This document shows positions 2,765-37,863 of a stretch of 64,000 nucleotides of DNA, one piece after another. The position numbers were made by a program, and so were the translations under genes. The first letter of the stretch is position 1, and every line of letters starts with the position of its first letter. The notes beneath the pieces were generated by a model that saw nothing but the letters and a program-made list of their open reading frames with translations, was not told the origin of the DNA and made no database searches. The stretch is from Sedimentisphaerales bacterium (GTDB lineage Bacteria > Planctomycetota > Phycisphaerae > Sedimentisphaerales > Anaerobacaceae), in the NCBI GenBank assembly GCA_963708075.1, contig OY970194.1:3488001-3552000 (forward strand), read 5' to 3'.

Positions 2765-3490
2765 CGAGCGTCCTCGCGGAGGGCACGAAAATGCGTCCCT
2801 CCACTATGGGACGAAAGTGCGCAATTTGGTCGAAAAAAACGCATCCCCGCCCGCCCACGAAACGCATAACCCCTTACTGCCAAAGGAATAAAATAATTTG
2901 CTGTAGCAGGCGCTTTTCCTTCTAAACCGGCGCGAATCGTGCGAAAATCGACCGAAAGTGAGTCAGACCAACAGGGGTTTCTCGCCACTTTGGGCGTGAG
3001 AAGCCCGCAAATCCGAAATCCGAATGTCGAAATCCGAAACAAGCACATAAAGCACAAATGCCCCAGATTCAAAACAGGACCAAGCAAGCAACGCGTAGGG
3101 GCGGGTTTGAAACCCGCCCGTAGACCTCCCAAGCCAGTCCTCTTATGCATGGCATTCCCGCGAAGGGCCTGCCCTCGACCCTCGATCAGGTCGAGGGCAG
3201 GCTCTGATCGGGGGCGGGAATCCAGGTTTCTTAACCACAAAGTCCACGAAGAGCCCAGCGCGGCCTCCGGCCGCAACCAAATTCCCCTCGCGCAGAGACG
3301 CGGAGGCGCAGAGAAAGGCCGAGCCGCAACACGTTCTGTACTCTGCGTCTCTGCGTGAGACATAATTCATGTGGTTTCAGTAGCTTACGTGTCACCCTGT
3401 CGAAAAATCTGCGCAAGAAAACAAGATCCCAACAAGTAGTAGTACGAAGAAGACCCCCTGAAGAAGGCGCCTCTTGATAGCGGTATTTTC

Positions 3491-27500: not shown

Positions 27501-27775
27501 ATGAGTGATGTGACACGGATCTTGAATGCCATCGAACGGGGGGACGCGAAAGCTACGGACGAACTCTTGCCCTTAGTCTATGAAGAACTCCGGCTGTTGG
27601 CCGCTCAGAAGCTATCCCATGAGGCTCCCGGTCAGACATTACAGGCCACCGCTTTGGTGCACGAGGCCTACGTCCGGCTCGTCGGGGATGGACCTGGAGG
27701 CTGGGACAACCGGGGCCATTTCTTTGCGGCGGCGGCGGAAGCGATGCGGCGCATCCTCGTGGAGAACGCACGGGG
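27501..27775 (+). pseudogene. ECF sigma factor (Rhodopirellula/Verrucomicrobium TIGR02999-type), 3'-truncated
   Basis: MSDVTRILNAIERGD...LLPLVYEELR...QTLQATALVHEAY...HFFAAAAEAMRRILVENAR, then the sequence switches to a palindrome and IS. Confidence 0.88.
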
Positions 27776-27796: not shown

Positions 27797-29609
27797 CGGG
27801 CTGTTGCCGGAAGCAGCCGTGAGGGAGCGGTCATGGGTAGCAGGGGCCGGAAGGCACAGGGGTCGCTCCGCGGCGATGAATCGACTGTAGAGGCTTCAGG
27901 AAGGTCCGGAGAAGTCCTGCCGGCGTGTCCAGAATGGTCCCGAGCGTGTGTGGGGCCGGGGCGCTGTGGCCTGGAGCCTGCGAGCAGGCCCCACGAGTGC
28001 GCCGACCCGTATGGCGCAGAAGGGTTCGCAAGTTCTGCACCGTCGCAATCAGCAGATCCTGAATCCGCTGACGCCAGAGCCGACGCCACCGGGCCCGCTT
28101 GAACCCATGGTGCGTCGCCGCATCCCCGAAGCTGCCCTCCATCCGCCATTTACGACGCCGGCGGTCGCGTGTGGCCGCCCGGCTGTGCGATTGCGCCCGG
28201 GCGGCGTCGATCGCGTCCTGGTCATAGTGCCGCTTGATCGTCCGGGCGGTCCCCTTGGCGCGGGTGCATTGCTGGCGCATCGAGCACTCCTGGCAGACCG
28301 CGGCGGCACAGGCGTATTCATAGGCCTGACGCTGCTTCTTGTGCTTGCGACGTGTGAGCGTCTGGCCTGCCGGACAGCGGTAGGTGTCGCTCGTGGAATC
28401 GTAGAGAAACTGCTCGATGCCGAAGATGCCCTGCATACAGGGTTTGTTCGCCTGCGACAACGTCAGGTCCGCCATGTGGCTGTTGATCCCACGCTGCCGA
28501 CAAGCCCGGAAGTTCTCCACCGTGCCGTACTGCATGTCGGCCACCACCGTCTCTGTCGTGCAGCCGGTGTTCTGCTCGTGCTGATCCGCCAGGTCCATCA
28601 ACTTGGCGTTCTCTTCCACATCCCCGGCCGTGGTGGCCACCGCCGTGATGACGCCACACAGATCATCCACCACCCGATGATTCTTGTACCGCGCCCGGGG
28701 GCCATGGGGCCCTTTGCGAACGATGGCGGCATCCGGATCGCTCGTGCTGACCATGGAGCGGTTCTTGGGCTTATAGTACTTCTTGGTCCCGCTCGGGGGC
28801 GACTGGGTGGCAGGCACAGGAGCAGGCGTCTGGCCGCAGGGGCCCTCCCCTTCGTTGGAGGCCGCCGTGGCAGTCGCGGCAGCTGGCGAGGCAATCGCCT
28901 TCGGGACCGATGCACAGGCTTCACTCGTGGCCATAGAGCCGTCGGCGGCGGGCTTAGGCGGGGAAGGTTCAGGTTCCTGCAGTTTCGTCATCTCGCCTCG
29001 AAGCGCCTGTCGCAGACGCTCGATCCAGAGTTCCGGGCCCTTGCAGACGGAGTTGTTGGAGGCGTTGGCGTCCACCAGGCTGCCATCCATGTGTATCTTG
29101 CGTCCGTTGACCAGACCGGCCTGGACACACTGAGCGACTCCCCTGGCGAAAGCCGTCTCGAACACCTCGCTGCCCCAGCGGCGGCGGGCCTTGCTCAGCA
29201 CGCTATGGTCGGGCACCTCGCTATCGAGGTCATAGCCCAGGAACCACAGCCAGTCCAAACGGTACGGCAGGGTCCGCATCAACTCCCGCTCCGAGGCCAC
29301 ATCGTAGAGGAACAACAGCAGCATCAGCTTGAGGATCACCGGCGGCGGCACCGAGACGTTTCCCTTGACGCCGTAGCGCCTCTGGACCAAGCCGTAGGTG
29401 AACTCGAAATCCACCATCGCCCGGATCTTGCGAAGCAGATGGTCCTGTGGAATCCGCTGCTCCAGAGAGAAATCGTAGTAGAAGAGTTTGCCCGACGGCT
29501 GTGACTGTCTGCCCATCATAAGGAGTCCCTTCCTTACCACCAATTCATCAGGACTCCTAAAGTATACTCACATACTCCTGAAAAGCAAGCCTATTCCGGC
29601 AACAGCCCG
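27797..29609 (-). mobile_element. IS1182-family insertion sequence
   Basis: 16-bp perfect TIR CGGGCTGTTGCCGGAA; TTGA duplicated at 27793-27796 and 29610-29613. Confidence 0.92.
27831..29519 (-). CDS. IS1182-family DDE transposase
   Basis: IPQDHLLRKI, PDHSVLSKARRR, HMDGSLVDANAS, STSDPDA, VADMQYG, CPAGQTL, EGSFGDA. Confidence 0.92.
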   Translation of the reverse strand: MMGRQSQPSGKLFYYDFSLEQRIPQDHLLRKIRAMVDFEFTYGLVQRRYGVKGNVSVPPPVILKLMLLLFLYDVASERELMRTLPYRLDWLWFLGYDLDSEVPDHSVLSKARRRWGSEVFETAFARGVAQCVQAGLVNGRKIHMDGSLVDANASNNSVCKGPELWIERLRQALRGEMTKLQEPEPSPPKPAADGSMATSEACASVPKAIASPAAATATAASNEGEGPCGQTPAPVPATQSPPSGTKKYYKPKNRSMVSTSDPDAAIVRKGPHGPRARYKNHRVVDDLCGVITAVATTAGDVEENAKLMDLADQHEQNTGCTTETVVADMQYGTVENFRACRQRGINSHMADLTLSQANKPCMQGIFGIEQFLYDSTSDTYRCPAGQTLTRRKHKKQRQAYEYACAAAVCQECSMRQQCTRAKGTARTIKRHYDQDAIDAARAQSHSRAATRDRRRRKWRMEGSFGDAATHHGFKRARWRRLWRQRIQDLLIATVQNLRTLLRHTGRRTRGACSQAPGHSAPAPHTLGTILDTPAGLLRTFLKPLQSIHRRGATPVPSGPCYP

Positions 29610-30290: not shown

Positions 30291-30643
30291 ACGGTGGTCG
30301 GTAGGCGGCAGTCGGTTGTCGGTGGGGATTCACGCCGGGTACGTGTTTGGCGTCGAGCCTCCCAATCGCCGGGTGCCAGCGCCAAACTCGTTGGGTTCAC
30401 CCCACATTGTCGGGATTTGGGTGGCAGCGGCAAGAGGAGTCTTCGGGGCTTGCCGCTGCCACCCGGCACTGTGCCTGAAACTCGCCCAGACACCTCCAAA
30501 TGTTACGGGTTTTCCCTTGCTTTTCGATTGCGCCTGTGCGAGAATAATTGTCTGCAGGGCGGGATAAGCAGGAGGCCTTCTGCGGATTCTCGTCGGAGAT
30601 GAACTCACCGAGTGTGTCACGGGCAAATGGTCAGGAGCGGAGT

Positions 30644-31504
30644 ATGAGAAACGCGGCAATTATCGTCGTTCTGTGGATCAGTGGTCTGGCGGCAGCGGAG
30701 GAGGCGGTTTCCGACCTCAACGGCAAGGTGGGCTATGCCGGCGGAAGCATGGAGGGCGACTGGGGCAACAATGTGTCGGCCAGCGGCAGTCTCCCGGTGA
30801 CCTCGAACGTCGGCTTTCAGGCCGACTGGTTGTACACGGACGTTTCCGACCGCGAATTCCTGGGGTCGGCGGCCCATCTGTTCTGGCGTGACCCGCAGAA
30901 GGGCCTGCTGGGACTGGTGGGCGGCGGTGTCGATGAGGAGGACATCGATTCGCTCCGGGGCGGCGTCGAAGGGGAGTACTACCTTGAGCACTTCACCCTG
31001 ACAGCCACCGCCGGGGTCGCGAGCCTTGAATATGACGACGGGCCGTTCCCCTTCATCGACGATGACGTGACGGATTTCTTCGGCGGCGCGGGCATCCGGT
31101 ACTATCCCCTGGACAACCTGATGCTGTCCGTCTCCTACCTGCATGTCTTTGACAACGAGCTCGTGCTGGGCATGGCGGAATATCAGACCCCCATCCACGG
31201 TCTGAGCGTGTTCGCCCAGATCGCCGACGGCGAGCACGGCTACGACCACGCCCTGTTTGGCGTCCAATTTTACATCGGCCGGGCCAAGAGCCTCATCCAG
31301 CGCCATCGCTCGGACGATCCGCAGAACCTCGTCCCGGACATCCTCTATGGCATAGGCGTCTACGGCGCTGAGTTCAACGGACGAGCCAGGGAATACGCCG
31401 AAACACACCCGGGCGCACAGGGCAGCAGCGGCAACTACGGAGTGCACTTCTCGACCGGTAGCAATGTCTCCGAAGAGCCGCCGGAGGACTGGGAGGAACC
31501 GTGA
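30644..31504 (+). CDS. Secreted probable outer-membrane beta-barrel protein
   Basis: AGGAG RBS, signal peptide, alternating aromatic beta strands (GVEGEYYLEHFT, GIRYYPLDNL, GVQFYIG). Confidence 0.7.
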   Translation: MRNAAIIVVLWISGLAAAEEAVSDLNGKVGYAGGSMEGDWGNNVSASGSLPVTSNVGFQADWLYTDVSDREFLGSAAHLFWRDPQKGLLGLVGGGVDEEDIDSLRGGVEGEYYLEHFTLTATAGVASLEYDDGPFPFIDDDVTDFFGGAGIRYYPLDNLMLSVSYLHVFDNELVLGMAEYQTPIHGLSVFAQIADGEHGYDHALFGVQFYIGRAKSLIQRHRSDDPQNLVPDILYGIGVYGAEFNGRAREYAETHPGAQGSSGNYGVHFSTGSNVSEEPPEDWEEP

Positions 31505-31581
31505 CGACAGTCACCTGTGATTGCCAGCCCCGAATAGCGGTTCCCTTCTGCGTGGTTCGCGTATTTCGCGGTTTCCATATC

Positions 31582-33484
31582 TGCGTTGCTAACTCGCAAC
31601 AACTGAAAAAGATTTCCAGATCTTCATGCGGCGGCTTTGTTAAGTTGTTCTGTGGTGGCCTTTTGCGTTAGCGAGATGGTAGCGATGATTTTGGCTCCGT
31701 TCGCGGTCAGGCGATACTTGCGAGTCTTGGGCAGACGGCGGATGATCTTGTGCTCTCGCAATAGCCGCAGCAGATACGTCACCTTCGCCGAGACCTCCTT
31801 GGCAGGACGGTTTGGATAGAGACGGCCGGCAATATCCCGATTGCGGAAATCCCCGACCAGTCCACAGGTCGCCACCGCCGCCAGCAGTTGCTGGTCCGCC
31901 TCGGACCAGGGTCGCAGCGCCCGGATCGATTTGCCCCTGCGGATGTGACGCCGGCAGATGGGCGAGACCACTTCTTCCACTCGCTCACTGGTGTCGAGCT
32001 TGGCCAGGGCTTCGAGGTAGCGGTCATTGACTTGTTGCGAGACTTGACTGCGGGCGTATAAGTCCACGATGCCCTTGCTCATGGGCAGCATCCTCTTGGA
32101 ACCCTGGGGATCGCGTTCGGACCGGCGGTAGACACGAAAGGCCCGAGCGTTGTTGATCGTGCACTCCGTACGCAGGATCGAGCCGGCCTTGTCATAGACC
32201 TTGACGGAGTTGGCGTGTGCCTGGTGCTTGACCCGAATTCCTTCGGGACGATCCCGGTAACTGCTGATCACCTCCTCCTGGCAGTTGGGATACAGACGCT
32301 TGCCGAGGAACCGCAGCACATCCTTGCTGCCAAAGGCGATCATGGAGCCACGCACCAGTTGGGGATAGATACGGCCCAACGCCTTGGGATCATCAAAGGC
32401 GATATCCGTCGCCCATTCGGTTCTCATGACTGGTCCAGTAGTAGTGCAAAGGAAAACCGGCAAACATCGTCTCGTGGGCCGGATTGAGGAATCGTGCGAT
32501 GCGGCCGAACTGCCGGCACCAATCGGTGCGGTGCAGTTGGTCCATCAATGCCTGAGCCCGTGGAAAATCAGCCATCCAGGGAAAGCAGTTGTCACACCGC
32601 CGGTACGCCAGATGCTCTTGATCCATCCTCTTGGCCAGCCATTCGCGGCCGTTCATCCACATCTGAATGGCAAAGGGAAACCACGTTTGGATGCGGGCGC
32701 CCATGAACCCGAAGTAGGCATCGTACCAGTAATGGTACAGGTGCATGCACTTGCCTTGAAACAGCTCCAAATCCAGCGTCTTGGCCTGGCGATTCTTATG
32801 AAGCTTGTAGGTCATGCATGGCTCAATCGTACGCAGAATGCAAATCAGTCCCTCCCGGATGCCATCGCGGGCAGCGATGTCCAAAGCGACTTGTTCCTTA
32901 TTGGTTCGGCTGGAGTGCAGGTACACATTGGGTCGGCCGGCCTGTTCGGCCTTGGCCACAGAGGCCTGGATCAGTTGCGCCGTCTTGTCCAGGGCGTACT
33001 GCTTGAAGTCCTTCATGAGAATGCTGCGATACGCCAGGTAGGAACACATCCCCGCCAGGTTGGCCACCAGGCGAAGGGTCCCACGAAAAACGATGCGGTC
33101 CCAGCCGCTCAAAACCCCTATAATGTGCTTCTTGTGCTTCTCCATGAACGATTGCATGGCATCCTCCTTGAAAAAACAGGTTGTCAGGTACAGCAACCAG
33201 CATAGCAGGGATGGATGCCTTTTTCATTCCAGAGGCTTGTGATCATCCTTTTCCTTTTTGCCCTCGATAGGCTTGGGGCAAAAAGGAAAAGGGTGACCAT
33301 CGTGGACAACAAGCGGGGCCAGCAGCGTCCACGGAGTGTGAGCAAGAAAAATGACAGGCGAGTCACGAGGGCGGATTCAACATCGCCGAGGATCGCGACT
33401 CTCGCTGGCGGCCCAGACTCGTGACCGAGACCACGCCTGGCATGTTCTTGCCACACGCAGTAGCTGCGGTCGAACGAGAACGCA
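31582..33484 (-). mobile_element. Unclassified IS-like element (ends approximate)
   Basis: Single ~510-aa ORF, ~330-nt structured leader, short TGCGTT...AACGCA ends and terminal hairpins, embedded in repeat mosaics. Confidence 0.55.
31624..33157 (-). CDS. Putative transposase/Rep-like protein with C-terminal winged-helix-like region (apparent +1 frameshift at ~32422)
   Basis: AAGGAGG RBS; GVLSGWDRIVFRGTLR...HYYWTSH/ETEWATD...RPEGIRVKH...SVKVYDKAGSILRTECTIN...FRNRD...YLLRLLREHKIIRRLPKTRKYRLT. Confidence 0.7.
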
Positions 33485-33730
33485 CATGCGATACGCCTTT
33501 GGTTGCGGCCGAAGGCCGCGCCAAGTTCATCGGCGTTGATCTGCGGTTCCATTCTTCCTCTGCGGTGGACAATGAGAGTCCGCATGGGCTAAAGCCCATC
33601 CCACTGAACTGGATTCCCGCCTCCGCGGGAATGACAGGAGGGAATCGGTGGGGCGAGCCCCACCCTGCGAATGCTTTCCATCGAGCCATCCGACCTCGCA
33701 CTTCACCCCTGTCACTTGTCCCGTACCGCG

Positions 33731-34016: not shown

Positions 34017-37000
34017 TCACGTGTAGCCCGCGACCCGTTCCGGATGCAGACGGACATACTCGTGCACTTTGCGGAGCTCCCGGCGCGGTATCAGTGCACA
34101 CATCCGCGGCAAGTCAAGATGGGATTCGGCGAGTCTCTGGTGATGATGCCGGTCCTTCGTACATCTCCACGCGGGCTTACCACCCCATTCGCCATACTCG
34201 ACAGGGGATCCACACCGCGCACAGATAATCACGCCACCTTGGGGGCCGGGCTGATCAATCTCACGCGTATAGCAGTAATCACGAACGCACCGCCAGAAGT
34301 ATGGTTCGTCTTCGCCCTCACAAGCAACGATCTCACTTTGACAAATGGGGCATACTGGAGAACCATTTGCATACTCCTGCAGAAGCTCGTGCAACCGCAG
34401 AGTCTTCTCATATTCCTCAACCACTCTCCTGCTGATCCAGCGTTCCATGTGCTCCTCGGTATTGCCGTAGCTCAGTGGGCTGAAGGAACCTCCCCAGACT
34501 ATCGTATCATCGATAAAAATGAGTTTTTCGTGCATCTTCTGTTTATGGATCACGACGACGCCCCACTGTTCGAGTGTTTTCTCAAGCAATTGGTAGTGCG
34601 CGACTTCCCTCTTGCCCCGGTCGGAGGAAGGCTTCGTTATGACATAGACCCGTGCGCCACGTTCCACAGCCGCCTTAAGCTGGGGCTCGAATAGTGATAG
34701 CCTGTTCTGCCTGAGAACAGGCGAATATATTACAATTCTTTGCCGTGCGAGGGCCACATCCTCACGAAGGTAACCATCGAACTCCTCTTCTGCAAATACG
34801 ATTCTCGCCTCGTGTGGGGTGATCTCTCCTCCAGAGACTCGGCGTTGCGCCCGTGCAGCTTTCGCAGCAAGGCCGCTCTTGACCACATCAAGTGCCGAGA
34901 CACTCTTGCAGCGTTCCTCGAGAAACGGTATCAGCCTGCCTCCAACAAACGCCCTCCTGCCCTTCTTCCGAATATAGGAGAAGTCACCTGCGATCAGCAG
35001 CCGACACCGTGCCCTGGTAATAGCTACATTCAGAAGCCGCTTCATGTCGCGATCGTGATCGGCCATGAACATGGCCGCCTCTTGTGGTTCATCGTCGACA
35101 AGGTCAACGATAACGACGTCGGCTTCGCAAGCTTGAAGGCTGTGCGCAGTACCGGCTCTCACCTCTGCGCTGAGTTTCTGTTCCTCAATCATTATTTGAA
35201 GCAGCCTCGTATGCTCGCTGTATGGTGACACAATCAGAATACGTGGTTCATTCCCCACGTCAGCCTGCTCTCGATGATCTCGCAATAGCTGTTCAGCAAT
35301 GTCGAGACACGCGGCCGCGGAAAGGAAGTTCAGTCGGCTTGATCCATGATTCTGTGGAACACCCGTCGCCCATGCATTCAGACTGCCGGTGTCAACCAAT
35401 AGTACGTGGCAATCGTACCGCCACGCAGGGTTGTACCATTCAGGGTCCCTGCCCTCTTGCACCTTGTCCGCATCCGCAAGCTCACCCTCGTAGATGAGAG
35501 TATTCACAACGGCACTTATATCCGGGTGCATTCGATACTGTTGTCTGAGATGGACGACGGAAGGACGGCCGCTGCAAATCCCGGCGGCCTCAAATATGTC
35601 GGTCCCCAACCATTTTCGGGCGAGCTCCTGCGTAGAGATCGCAACGGGCGGCAACTGCTCTGGATCCCCTGCGACCACGATGCTCGATGTAGCTGCACTC
35701 GCGGCTACCCAGAGGGCCGGGATCGGGGCCATTGAGGCCTCATCAATGATGATGGTGTCAAATGTCCGACCTTGAATCGCGTCTCGAAGGTATGCTCGTG
35801 TCAAGGTAGTTGCCACCACTCGTGCCGCTTCAATCACGAGCTGATCGACTCGCTTCAGGTCTTCTTCAATAGTGACCAGCTCCGTTTCGATTGTCTCGAT
35901 CTGCGCGTTAACGGCGCCGCGATCGGAGACAAGTGCCTCCAGTCCTTCGTCTTGGGTCATCTCGACCGCACGCCTATAAGCCGACTCCATTCGTGCCAGC
36001 ATTCCTTCGATGGAGTCTGCACCGTCTTGTGCAAGGCCAGGCTGATCCAGTTCACTCATGCGGGTCCGCAGGGAATCCTGCAGTCTCGCCGTGTTGCTCT
36101 GCAAATCGCGGCTCAGTTCCTCGATTTTTGCGGCGGTCTCCCGGACATGTGTGTCGTAAGCATGTACCCTTTGCAGGAGCTCTGCCGGTTCACACCAATA
36201 GGATAGCCGGAAATGCCGGACTTCTTCTGTCAGCACTCCCCGCTCCTCTTTGAATGCACGCAACTTCGCTTTGGCTTTATCGAGGGCGAGTCGCTGTTCT
36301 TCAACAGCATCCCCGACCGTTCGAATCCTCTCTGTTTGCTCTTTCGGATTGGGCAATCCTTGCCACCTCCTCACGAGCCAATTGACCGCGCATGTTTCTA
36401 CGAGCAGCGTCCTTGCTCGACAGAATTCGGCATCCATCTGTTCCACAGCCGCCGTACCCTGAGCTATCTCATGCTCCGCAGCGTGAATCACCTCGGCGAC
36501 TTGCGCGAGTTTTGACGTGTCCCTCTCACTCTGCTCGATATCCGCTCTGGCTTTCTCGTAGTACTGCGCCTGTGATTCAAGGCCCCGCAGTACGCCCCGC
36601 AGCTCCTCGATCTCGGTTTCGCGGCCGCGAAGATCATCCAATTCCCTCCGCGCCTGTTCCATGTCGGTTACAGCAAGGCATACCCACTCATGGAGTTCGA
36701 TCTTCTTGCAGAGGGCCTTCACTTTCTCTATGCACTGCTCCTGTACATGGTGCAGGCCCGTCCGTCGATCCGCAAGCGCATGGGAACGTCTTTCGGCATG
36801 AGTACTCAGCAGCAGGTCCGGGTGCCGCTCTTTCAACCGGATGTCCCTGGGATCGCCGACTCTGATCACAAGGCCCTGCCGACGCGGCTCATCATCAAGA
36901 TACGCATTCATTTCCAGCAGCGCCCGGTCAACCGCCGCATTTGTGTGAGAGACGATCAGTACCGAGCGATCGGAGCGCAGCAACGCGGTTGCGATAGCGC

Positions 37001-37625
37001 CAATCGTCTTGCTCTTGCCTGTGCCGGGAGGCCCCTGAATGAACGTCGCGTGGAATCCCAAGCTCGCTGCAAGAGCCCTGTTTTGTTCCGGGTTCAGGCC
37101 ATAGGGCTTCTCATCGACCCATGCGGGAGAACCATGCACATCCGCGTCAAGCAGCCTGTCACCAACAACGTTCGGCAAGTCAGCCTTCGTCTCAATACGC
37201 TCAATGAGCTTTCGCATGAGGAGCGTCAAGTCGCTGTGCAGGCGAGCGCAAGGAACGGTGAGCCCAAGGTCCTCCGGCACACTCAGCGTGATCGCCATGC
37301 CGTCGACCGCCACCACGGAGACCTCAAGAGGCTCTCGATCCGGCAGTAAGAGGTCACCCGGAGCATCGCCGGGAAGGTTCAGTGCGTTCTCTAATTCGAA
37401 GACATAGTGAACACTTCCAGCAACCAGCCCGATGCGTCTCCCATGGACAAGGCCCACAGCAAAACTCTCTGCGTAGCGTCTGGCAGCCTCTATCTCCTGT
37501 CGCAATGCGGATCGGAATTCGGCCAGTCTCCCGGTGAGAGCTACCTCCGCATTCGGGCATGATTCGGCCACGGCCGGCGAGATTCCCTTTTCTCTCGGTT
37601 CAGGCAGCAAACGAAACGGACACAT
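34017..37625 (-). CDS. SF1 (Upf1/DNA2-like) helicase with coiled-coil insert, C-terminal PLD-like domain and zinc ribbons
   Basis: QGPPGTGKS, IIDEASM, GDPEQLPP, QYRMHPDI, LNVAITRAR; HEKLIFIDD; CPIC and CARC; GGAGG before ATG 37625. Confidence 0.88.
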   Translation of the reverse strand: MCPFRLLPEPREKGISPAVAESCPNAEVALTGRLAEFRSALRQEIEAARRYAESFAVGLVHGRRIGLVAGSVHYVFELENALNLPGDAPGDLLLPDREPLEVSVVAVDGMAITLSVPEDLGLTVPCARLHSDLTLLMRKLIERIETKADLPNVVGDRLLDADVHGSPAWVDEKPYGLNPEQNRALAASLGFHATFIQGPPGTGKSKTIGAIATALLRSDRSVLIVSHTNAAVDRALLEMNAYLDDEPRRQGLVIRVGDPRDIRLKERHPDLLLSTHAERRSHALADRRTGLHHVQEQCIEKVKALCKKIELHEWVCLAVTDMEQARRELDDLRGRETEIEELRGVLRGLESQAQYYEKARADIEQSERDTSKLAQVAEVIHAAEHEIAQGTAAVEQMDAEFCRARTLLVETCAVNWLVRRWQGLPNPKEQTERIRTVGDAVEEQRLALDKAKAKLRAFKEERGVLTEEVRHFRLSYWCEPAELLQRVHAYDTHVRETAAKIEELSRDLQSNTARLQDSLRTRMSELDQPGLAQDGADSIEGMLARMESAYRRAVEMTQDEGLEALVSDRGAVNAQIETIETELVTIEEDLKRVDQLVIEAARVVATTLTRAYLRDAIQGRTFDTIIIDEASMAPIPALWVAASAATSSIVVAGDPEQLPPVAISTQELARKWLGTDIFEAAGICSGRPSVVHLRQQYRMHPDISAVVNTLIYEGELADADKVQEGRDPEWYNPAWRYDCHVLLVDTGSLNAWATGVPQNHGSSRLNFLSAAACLDIAEQLLRDHREQADVGNEPRILIVSPYSEHTRLLQIMIEEQKLSAEVRAGTAHSLQACEADVVIVDLVDDEPQEAAMFMADHDRDMKRLLNVAITRARCRLLIAGDFSYIRKKGRRAFVGGRLIPFLEERCKSVSALDVVKSGLAAKAARAQRRVSGGEITPHEARIVFAEEEFDGYLREDVALARQRIVIYSPVLRQNRLSLFEPQLKAAVERGARVYVITKPSSDRGKREVAHYQLLEKTLEQWGVVVIHKQKMHEKLIFIDDTIVWGGSFSPLSYGNTEEHMERWISRRVVEEYEKTLRLHELLQEYANGSPVCPICQSEIVACEGEDEPYFWRCVRDYCYTREIDQPGPQGGVIICARCGSPVEYGEWGGKPAWRCTKDRHHHQRLAESHLDLPRMCALIPRRELRKVHEYVRLHPERVAGYT

Positions 37626-37863
37626 CCTATCCTCCACCATGCATGGCACCTTGGCACGAGATGACAGCAGGGCCCTTTCACCTGCCGATTCCGCCCCCGA
37701 CGTGGGCCCCCTTGTTGCATGCCTATTCCCACGCAGGTCAGTTGTCTGCGGTCACCGCGGCCCGTGGCGGATCAGTACGTGATCGTCCCAATGCCCGAAA
37801 AGCTCTCCGTGATTGTCAGCAAAGGCCACACGAGATTCGTGGCGGTCCTCAGTATCGATGGGA

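Follow-up and report, generated by a model that had tools for sequence, protein, structure and literature searches.

The 64,000-nucleotide window analyzed here (positions 3,488,001 to 3,552,000 of contig OY970194.1, from a Sedimentisphaerales bacterium) contains, on its reverse strand, an insertion sequence of an apparently undescribed transposase class. The element is real, present in multiple copies and very probably autonomous. In our preferred reading, to which we assign a probability of about 0.6, it is an autonomous insertion sequence with a TBP-fold tyrosine nickase that moves by IS200/IS605-like 'peel-and-paste', carried out by an enzyme unrelated to theirs. The element has exact ends, a target consensus and miniature derivatives, has spread in many copies without duplicating its target, encodes conserved residues of catalytic type, shows complementarity between one end and the target and, in one genome, is biased toward one replichore strand. 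An earlier note on this DNA had proposed an unclassified mobile element with a Rep-like protein and a structured leader; the element is indeed multi-copy in its own genome and in relatives, and its protein falls in no characterized insertion sequence family. In the following, G000 is the window's own complete 7.5-Mb genome, G191 is another complete genome, and L-numbers denote loci of relatives.

The search for further copies suggested in the earlier note was carried out by BLAST of G000, which returned the window element and two further copies that are 99.8-99.9% identical and have different flanks. One of the three copies is intact, and its 510-aa open reading frame (ORF; P0001) contains the motif KVYDK..LRTECTIN. 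In the window the ORF lies in two pieces owing to a single extra base near 32421. Since a public short-read contig with the same left flank, from a run that may be the source sample, shows no difference other than the lack of this base, an error of assembly or variation between strains is the probable cause of the frame break.

The comparison of copies placed the ends at 31585 and 33524. The ends first proposed, TGCGTT...AACGCA at 31582 and 33484, had to be given up as terminal inverted repeats, their 6-bp match being due to chance, and the interval to 33484 leaves out the terminal hairpin. No terminal inverted repeats were found in the element by this comparison. There is also no target duplication, as had been noted from the sequence: exact flank repeats did not exceed 2 nt in the 18 loci whose hairpin-end boundary was placed correctly (automated calling was right in 18 of 38 loci, and the other 20 were dropped). 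Read on the coding strand, the upstream end consists of four bases, a GC-rich hairpin and AACCAA, and the downstream end extends ~42 nt past the stop codon and closes in TTAG-Y-ARY. The hairpin with AACCAA is still recognizable in relatives at ~30% protein identity, and this small hairpin and the ~42 nt that follow the stop codon are the putative cis-acting ends conserved throughout the family. At L176 the boundary is fixed to the base, because joining the flanks at C^A alone gives 117 open codons, compared with 58-81 for four shifted joins.

Insertion was found at C^RCRRA-type sites, often within REP-like repeats ('REP-like' being our own label), although the target is a short motif that is used outside repeats as well. 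In G191 the target ^ACRRA had A in 30 of 30 sites, followed by C in 29, R in 30, R in 27 and A in 30. Among the 18 loci of relatives with a correctly placed boundary, the flank at the hairpin end closed in C in all. When joined, the flanks of the G000 elements rebuild REP-like repeats that are common in empty form; G000 has 109 uninterrupted occurrences of the motif ATCYGYGWNNATC, against one of the reversed control.

The choice of target is mirrored in the element's own end. Among 93 non-duplicate junctions drawn from 117 rows, end base -4 and target base +1 were T/A in 45, C/G in 30, C/A in six, T/G in two and other in 10, some of the last being mis-called ends, and end base -5 (G) stood opposite target +2 (C) in 82. 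In a tree of 55 hand-picked elements, with one row per element, C/T at -4 and A/G at +1, base -4 differed in nine independent pairs, of which the target followed seven, opposed none and was uninformative in two (median p 0.016). The G191 sites with a T end had target A in 30 of 30 cases. The element therefore seems, from these junctions, to pick its target partly by base pairing of its own end; the guide of IS608 likewise pairs with the cleavage site (PMC3201880). A protein preference co-evolving with the end, instead of pairing, is an alternative source of the -4/+1 complementarity.

A number of loci show unusual arrangements of ends. L087, L134, L050, L039, L060 and L138 are head-to-tail neighbours that sit at, or one 10-bp repeat unit from, the hairpin end of another element, the first bases of which mimic the target. 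In L050, L087 and L134 the junctions are directly end to end and represent either circles or tandem insertions, L087 being a tandem miniature element. At L136 the ~45-nt downstream end is exactly duplicated in tandem after the stop codon. In G191 (C1, 976000-994000), same-orientation copies and orphan hairpin ends ~220 bp apart are clustered, which suggests local hopping.

The two ends bound nine copies in a Thermoguttaceae, seven in a Solibacteraceae and five in an Acidobacteriaceae assembly as well as seven inspected copies in G191, which has 37 downstream and 42 hairpin ends in total. G000 has ~16 hairpin ends and 11 downstream ends, the latter belonging to the three full elements and, in at least seven cases, to derivatives of 60-200 bp. 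Near-identical relatives of the derivative at 3255-3443 lie elsewhere in G000, the smallest of ~60 bp (C1 near 6808211). The protein family comprises 3,308 matches among 8,000 scored candidates and 5,689 cluster representatives at 50% clustering. Members were found in 17 of the 61 close genomes and in 14 of the 201 genomes from the phylum, and 170 of 204 candidate GTDB stretches encode relatives. The 80 stretches kept come from Planctomycetota, Acidobacteriota, delta-proteobacterial lineages, Nitrospirota, Spirochaetota, Chloroflexota and Pseudomonadota, with nearly all hosts bacterial. Database annotations of the family read hypothetical protein or regulator.

These distributions bear on the proposal that the protein is a regulator, or initiates the replication of a plasmid or phage whose relic is integrated here, and that the unit is moved by another transposase. 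Its domain order is that of the Rep-Arvir initiators (PMC13107129), and the best plasmid match is annotated as an ArsR regulator. However, the repeated unit consists of the gene and two short ends only, miniature derivatives retain the ends alone, the end and target rules follow the element across phyla, and the family is matched by none of 50,697 phage and only 13 of 72,556 plasmid records, which makes this explanation highly improbable.

To what kind of enzyme the protein belongs was assessed by structural and sequence comparison. A model of residues 1-387 (predicted local distance difference test, pLDDT, 96) has beta strands at 316-323 and 327-334, and a catalytic tyrosine on a beta strand is the arrangement of Rep_trans and not of HUH enzymes (PMC5714925). 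Foldseek ranked RepSTK1 first (E 1.2e-3), and in VIA-align over residues 2-387 the first seven rows were TBPs and RepDE/RepSTK1, with a Z of 8.2 for TBP (178 aligned, root-mean-square deviation 3.7) and of 6.9 for RepDE/RepSTK1 (177-185 aligned). Conservation among 100 aligned relatives was 96 for D20, 99 for D251, 100 for E247, Y321, R329 and E331, and 93 for K323. D20, D251/E247, Y321 and E331 parallel D46, D142, Y191 and E214 of RepDE (PMC13107129), and the structural alignment begins at residue 13 as against 39 of RepDE, which is compatible with D20 corresponding to D46. Motif III YxK and motif IV LxRxE, as defined in PMC5714925, are present, while the xxE of motif III is absent. The basic C-terminal region, described earlier as resembling a winged helix-turn-helix (wHTH), turned out to be a MarR/PadR-like wHTH domain with a profile match to a MarR protein (E 0.028).

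Known families were not recovered by sequence. PF02486 (Rep_trans) gave no match to 30 family members at E 0.1 or to the window pieces, DUF7845 (PF25227) gave none among family members, and searches of Pfam, NCBIfam, PHROGs, PDB sequences and the ESM Atlas returned weak wHTH matches or unnamed clusters only. The same NCBIfam library names a true IS200 TnpA in L165, yet it gives no match for the family protein. An H-x-H column was not found in five or more of the 100 aligned rows, in agreement with the HUH motif having been reported missing. The library searches gave no family match to a DEDD RuvC-like recombinase, and the model has a TBP-like fold.

Taken together, the model supports a tyrosine nickase of the TBP fold that is related to Rep_trans and carries a wHTH tail for DNA binding. 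Tyrosine single-strand chemistry is probable. The earlier remark that YDK recalls Rep_trans is upheld by the fold search and the residues, with modest scores. Some features speak against the assignment: the structural scores are weak, no PDB match was obtained with Foldseek at E 0.001, Z values of 6.9-8.2 can be reached by unrelated folds, Rep_trans motif I lacks its arginine (A-T-D; position 249 is A/S), and motif II is not evident.

The orientation of copies was used to ask which strand is transferred. Of the 37 copies in G191, 30 have their coding strand on the G-rich replichore strand (binomial p 2e-4 for breakpoints placed by eye; permutation with free breakpoints p 0.009), and the supply of target motifs is unbiased between strands (359:364). 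The G-rich replichore strand carries the sequence of the lagging-strand template. It is the lagging-strand template that IS608 uses (PMC5027513). Read-through capture of flanking DNA was seen in none of 28 same-genome copies inspected (9, 7, 5 and 7), a number too small to exclude a rate of ~1%. From the replichore bias in G191 and the absence of read-through we therefore favour peel-and-paste-like transfer of the coding strand as the likelier course over rolling-circle transfer of the other strand, despite the wobble pattern and the layout described below.

Several observations weigh against this choice. The skew in G191 was derived from 20 noisy sampled blocks, and the bias may owe something to local hopping or to selection on the direction of genes; in G000 the bias has the same direction and is not significant (11 of 19; 10 of 14 away from the skew minimum). 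Mismatches at -4/+1 are unevenly distributed, with C/A in six of 36 and T/G in two of 47 (Fisher p 0.07; 0.018 with the G191 sites added), a pattern that fits G-T wobble on the non-coding strand. With DNA parameters, the imperfect rod in the leader (see below) also pairs better on the non-coding strand in 22 of 22 leaders. Because both the wobble asymmetry and the rod pairing favour the non-coding strand, they point to the opposite active strand. In addition, neither a circle joint nor an empty allele of the window locus was seen in four DNA runs, the contigs of which show presence only, and one full G000 copy has a non-consensus flank at its downstream end.

The wobble asymmetry and the rod pairing would suit the same enzyme working by IS91/Helitron-like rolling-circle transposition on the non-coding strand, with the downstream end as origin, the hairpin end as terminator and the rod as the single-strand origin at which synthesis of the second strand would start once the circle is displaced. 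Such a course would also be in line with the Rep ancestry of the fold and the high copy numbers. On the non-coding strand, moreover, every cut has conserved bases on its 5' side, and the element closes in a hairpin and C-Y-R-R-like bases, and the layouts of IS91 and Helitrons resemble this arrangement. We nevertheless consider it doubtful: hairpin ends outnumber downstream ends in both G191 and G000, the replichore bias places the coding strand on the lagging-strand template, the rod is missing from most relatives, and the inspected copies lack the read-through expected from missed termination, which is typical of rolling-circle elements (PMC5714925).

Under the peel-and-paste model, Tyr321 would nick one strand at each end to form a 5'-phosphotyrosine, with a metal held by D20/D251 or E247/E331. 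With its two ends joined, the element would exit as a single-stranded circle, which would go in precisely at C^RCRRA of a single-stranded target; the lagging-strand template is the likeliest candidate for this target. Target bases one and two would be read by pairing with two bases close to the gene-downstream end, whereas the other cut would be positioned by the hairpin with AACCAA. The leader module would be a passenger, housed in a variable slot that has the terminal hairpin on one side and the promoter hairpin on the other, and would be dispensable for transposition.

The leader had been described as densely structured, and the stem arms listed for it are all present, at or within 1 nt of where they had been placed. 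The region 33140-33500 folds far better than dinucleotide shuffles, with z -5.2 on the coding strand and -6.4 on the + strand. In most relatives the leader is 65-130 nt long and consists of the terminal hairpin followed by an inverted repeat over the ribosome-binding site, and a ~70-80-nt hairpin leader similar to 33158-33219 is found in most of the distant relatives. The stretch between these two structures is a cargo slot, in which other lineages carry unrelated inserts of 175-520 nt. In the window's subfamily (76-99% protein identity) the slot holds a structured module.

Over 23 distinct leaders the consensus structure of the module was 98.7% paired with nine doubly changed pairs, although it was derived from the same alignment on which it was scored and each change arose ~2-3 times by tree reading; 0-1 of 500 shuffles were as good, and slid controls were at most 55% paired. 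Of the stems first listed, the 21-bp hairpin and the GTGTG-GCAAGAA/CAGGCG rod stood up and covary, and they are 99% paired, as is a longer-range outer helix. The remaining three were weaker or not conserved, with GTCACGAG/CTCGTGAC paired in 37% of cells, CGTGGAC/GTCCACG in 76% and the local CGCAG/CTGCG in 93%, and as a set they were no better than shuffles (106 of 500). The rod arms are 88% identical, compared with 60% at fourfold-degenerate sites of the gene and 57% in the loop (16 elements, 120 pairs), and are therefore under selection. The loop measures 69-74 nt in 22 of 22 aligned leaders, with a mean fold z of +0.1; the 23rd leader, L060, was left out of this set owing to a deletion in the loop.

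The module is missing from L047, which has 89% protein identity and is nested among carriers, and from L070 (73%). Its covariance model matched seven of 101 related genomes, all of one genus, and the four places without a gene are a deletion derivative or relics still joined to a hairpin end; among 61 sources only the window matched, but most of the other 60 are relatives that are distant or have short leaders. A search for a free-standing module by its arm pattern returned one of 401 phylum genomes, namely its own, and 13 viral-contig matches that are due to chance and have no partner arm or gene. The module was thus found only attached to the hairpin end, and target choice is similar with or without it. 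L165 (G022:C39) is an internal-deletion derivative that retains both ends and the rod module and was itself struck by an IS200-family element, and L170 and L171, from different genomes, are relics reduced to the second rod arm plus the hairpin end, their loop breakpoints being nearly identical.

Given its absence from L047, the module appears to be accessory cargo and not an essential guide or origin for transposition, so that the view of the long leader as the element's origin or as an essential RNA of the IS110/OMEGA kind is not supported as it stood. What is left of the proposed single-stranded DNA signal or associated RNA is an accessory role: the module is kept by selection in its subfamily and probably acts in single-stranded form. 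We tentatively put a single-stranded DNA signal first; a regulatory RNA is possible, a double-stranded dyad site is unlikely, and a small ORF is more unlikely still.

A more specific proposal is a transposon-encoded non-coding RNA, either an antisense regulator or a target-reading guide like a bridge/seek RNA or omegaRNA. A conserved scaffold with compensatory changes around a variable loop, arms under purifying selection and the exchange of leader and gene by recombination would all fit such an RNA. Recombination between lineages follows from L037, a mosaic relative to the window in which a near-identical gene (99-100% over the 3' two thirds; protein 99% identical) is paired with a diverged leader (~80%; loop 64%). 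This RNA is nevertheless unlikely, given the loss of the module in L047 and the similar choice of target without it. The longest match of the loop elsewhere in G000 is 15 nt, compared with 14-19 nt in shuffles; Rfam 15 gave no leader match at the gathering score, only sub-threshold microRNA hairpins, and a consensus scan found neither a sigma-70 promoter nor a terminator in the leader. Folding with RNA parameters shows no strand preference (13 of 22), and the element has no gene for an RNA-guided nuclease. A group II intron-like leader was ruled out, as there is no Rfam match and the element extends 40 nt beyond the point first taken as its end.

We also considered a small antisense-oriented ORF (a leader peptide or type I toxin-like) or a relic of one. 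The first arm contains ATG/GTG, the frame is stopped inside the loop in only two of 22 leaders, and 13 of 22 loops are exactly 72 nt long; in the distant relative L121 the same slot is filled, in the same orientation, by a real gene for a four helix bundle protein (737-1096, - strand; TIGR02436, E 1e-34; weak match to Avd of diversity-generating retroelements). However, in eight of 22 loops, the window's included, the change in length is not divisible by three, codon positions 1/2/3 show identities of 0.60/0.55/0.58, and the + strand of the loop is poor in T, which alone is enough to deplete stops. This explanation is accordingly very unlikely, and a conserved peptide is not supported by the codon-position identities or the loop lengths.

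Table 1. Features of the insertion sequence and related features in the window (positions in the window; on the minus strand the gene reads from right to left).
Feature	Position	Strand	Remarks
Non-autonomous derivative, 189 bp	3255..3443	+	Sister-subfamily ends; both family ends and an internal REP-like hairpin
Target half beside gene-downstream end	31579..31584	+	GCAGAT on coding strand; part of REP-like repeat; common to 2/3 full copies and derivatives
Whole insertion sequence	31585..33524	-	1940 bp; ends from three G000 copies and derivatives; same end layout in multi-copy relatives
Gene-downstream end	31585..31626	-	Stop codon, ~35-nt conserved segment, terminal TTAG-Y-ARY; base -4 complementary to target +1 (putative target-reading guide)
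Transposase gene	31624..33157	-	510 aa in intact copy P0001; window copy split by one extra base near 32421
C-terminal MarR/PadR-like winged-helix domain	31627..31986	-	aa ~391-510; many wHTH proteins matched in VIA-align (Z 8-9.7)
Codon of Tyr321, predicted catalytic tyrosine	32194..32196	-	K-x-Y-D-K on beta strand, then L-R-x-E; invariant in 100/100 relatives
Minimal leader	33158..33219	-	Inverted repeat over ribosome-binding site with -10-like box inside (putative expression control); 99% paired
Optional structured module	33227..33497	.	~270 nt, one subfamily; 23 distinct leaders aligned
Long pyrimidine/purine hairpin in module	33243..33296	.	13 core pairs 99% paired, 3 with double changes
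Conserved imperfect rod	33320..33469	.	Outer helix and arms 33336-33360 and 33434-33456; 27 pairs, 99% paired, 5 with double changes
Variable loop of rod	33361..33433	.	69-74 nt, unstructured, without codon periodicity
Gene-upstream end	33499..33524	-	4 terminal bases, GC-rich hairpin, AACCAA; the family's most conserved DNA feature
Other target half and continuing REP-like direct-repeat array	33525..33548	+	Flank base adjoining element is C on coding strand

The surroundings of the element were inspected as well. More REP-like hairpins, one family of which has 50 copies in G000, lie beside it at 33609-33680 and 33949, together with a short piece matching the interior of the miniature derivatives. 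An outer-membrane beta-barrel-like gene at 30548-31504 (+; OMP_b-brl, E 4e-6, just under the cut-off) stops 80 nt before the element. At 27831-29543 (-) a DDE transposase (DUF772 and DDE_Tnp_1_6) breaks an ORF starting at 27501, which we take from its sequence to be like an extracytoplasmic function (ECF) sigma factor. On the other side, a 1210-aa ORF (34017-37649, -) reads as having a helicase-like Walker motif, a long coiled coil and a C-terminal PLD-like/zinc-finger region and is possibly a defence gene.

The review PMC5714925 describes the rolling-circle and single-strand transposases as all HUH enzymes and gives Rep_trans proteins a part in the replication of plasmids and phages and in conjugative replication. 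If an insertion sequence is indeed run by an enzyme of the TBP fold, tyrosine single-strand transposition would have arisen a second time, independently, and the enzyme would represent a new class of transposase. The family is common, as its 5,689 cluster representatives and the 37 ends in G191 indicate, yet databases list it as hypothetical or regulator. It may help to explain the build-up of REP-like repeats and of miniature inverted-repeat transposable elements in Planctomycetota and Acidobacteriota, and the complementarity between end and target offers a direct and cheap way to test DNA-guided, scarless insertion. In its widest form, the proposal would be a new bacterial transposase class derived from TBP-fold Rep_trans nickases, found in many phyla, with scarless single-strand integration that can be retargeted through the end bases and a rod module acting as a functional RNA or single-stranded DNA that extends or regulates activity; taken as a whole, this is speculative and rather unlikely. 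A full-text literature search, with subscription journals and ISfinder outside its reach, found no published description of the family.

Among known systems, the IS200/IS605 elements (IS608, ISDra2) are alike in having no inverted repeats or target duplication, a subterminal hairpin, a target that here, too, seems to be read by pairing with element DNA, and an orientation tied to the replichore, for which the present element gives significant counts in G191 but not in G000 (PMC3201880; PMC5027513). Their transposase, however, is a small HUH Y1 TnpA and not a 510-aa protein of the TBP fold, and the present element differs in its one clear terminal hairpin, in two-base instead of four-base pairing detected, in having no TnpB/IscB, and in the position of the conserved target bases 3' of the element on the coding strand. 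With IS91/ISCR and Helitrons it shares a predicted Rep-like tyrosine transposase, the lack of inverted repeats and duplication, unequal ends, non-autonomous derivatives and a passenger slot, but those use HUH enzymes (PMC5714925), whereas no HUH motif, helicase or read-through capture was seen here. REP/RAYT systems and REP-inserting IS110-family elements are alike in their frequent residence in REP-like repeats and their long non-coding region; in contrast to them, the element has neither an HUH nor a DEDD-RuvC protein, its target motif also occurs outside repeats, and its non-coding module is dispensable. Unlike the essential bridge/seek RNA of IS110/IS1111, this module is missing from L047, L070 and distant multi-copy relatives, and its loop has no excess match to the genome. 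DDE insertion sequences differ by their transposase, of which no match was found, and by their terminal inverted repeats and target duplication.

On the side of the protein, Rep_trans (PF02486) and the MOBT relaxases (RepDE, 4CWC; RepSTK1, 4CIJ) are alike in the TBP-like catalytic fold, by a weak structural match, in the tyrosine on a beta strand, in the Y-x-K and L-R-x-E motifs and in candidates for the acidic triad. The element's protein differs from them by the lack of a PF02486 match and of the motif I arginine, by an insertion-rich N-terminal region of ~250 aa and by the fused wHTH, and while they act at a plasmid origin or oriT, it works in an insertion sequence with two defined ends. 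The archaeal Rep-Arvir/DUF7845 initiators likewise have a TBP-fold catalytic domain followed by a MarR-like wHTH and a cognate hairpin beside the gene (PMC13107129), and two viral-library matches named in that source, A0A345MNV4 and A0A2N9QVX7, also match here. Those initiators, however, are archaeal and serve virus and plasmid replication, whereas the element is a bacterial, multi-copy chromosomal insertion without a DUF7845 match. The element behaves like IS200/IS605 or IS91 yet lacks the HUH motif that defines both, and its predicted protein resembles Rep_trans and Rep-Arvir in fold and residues, matches neither model and would have a different role.

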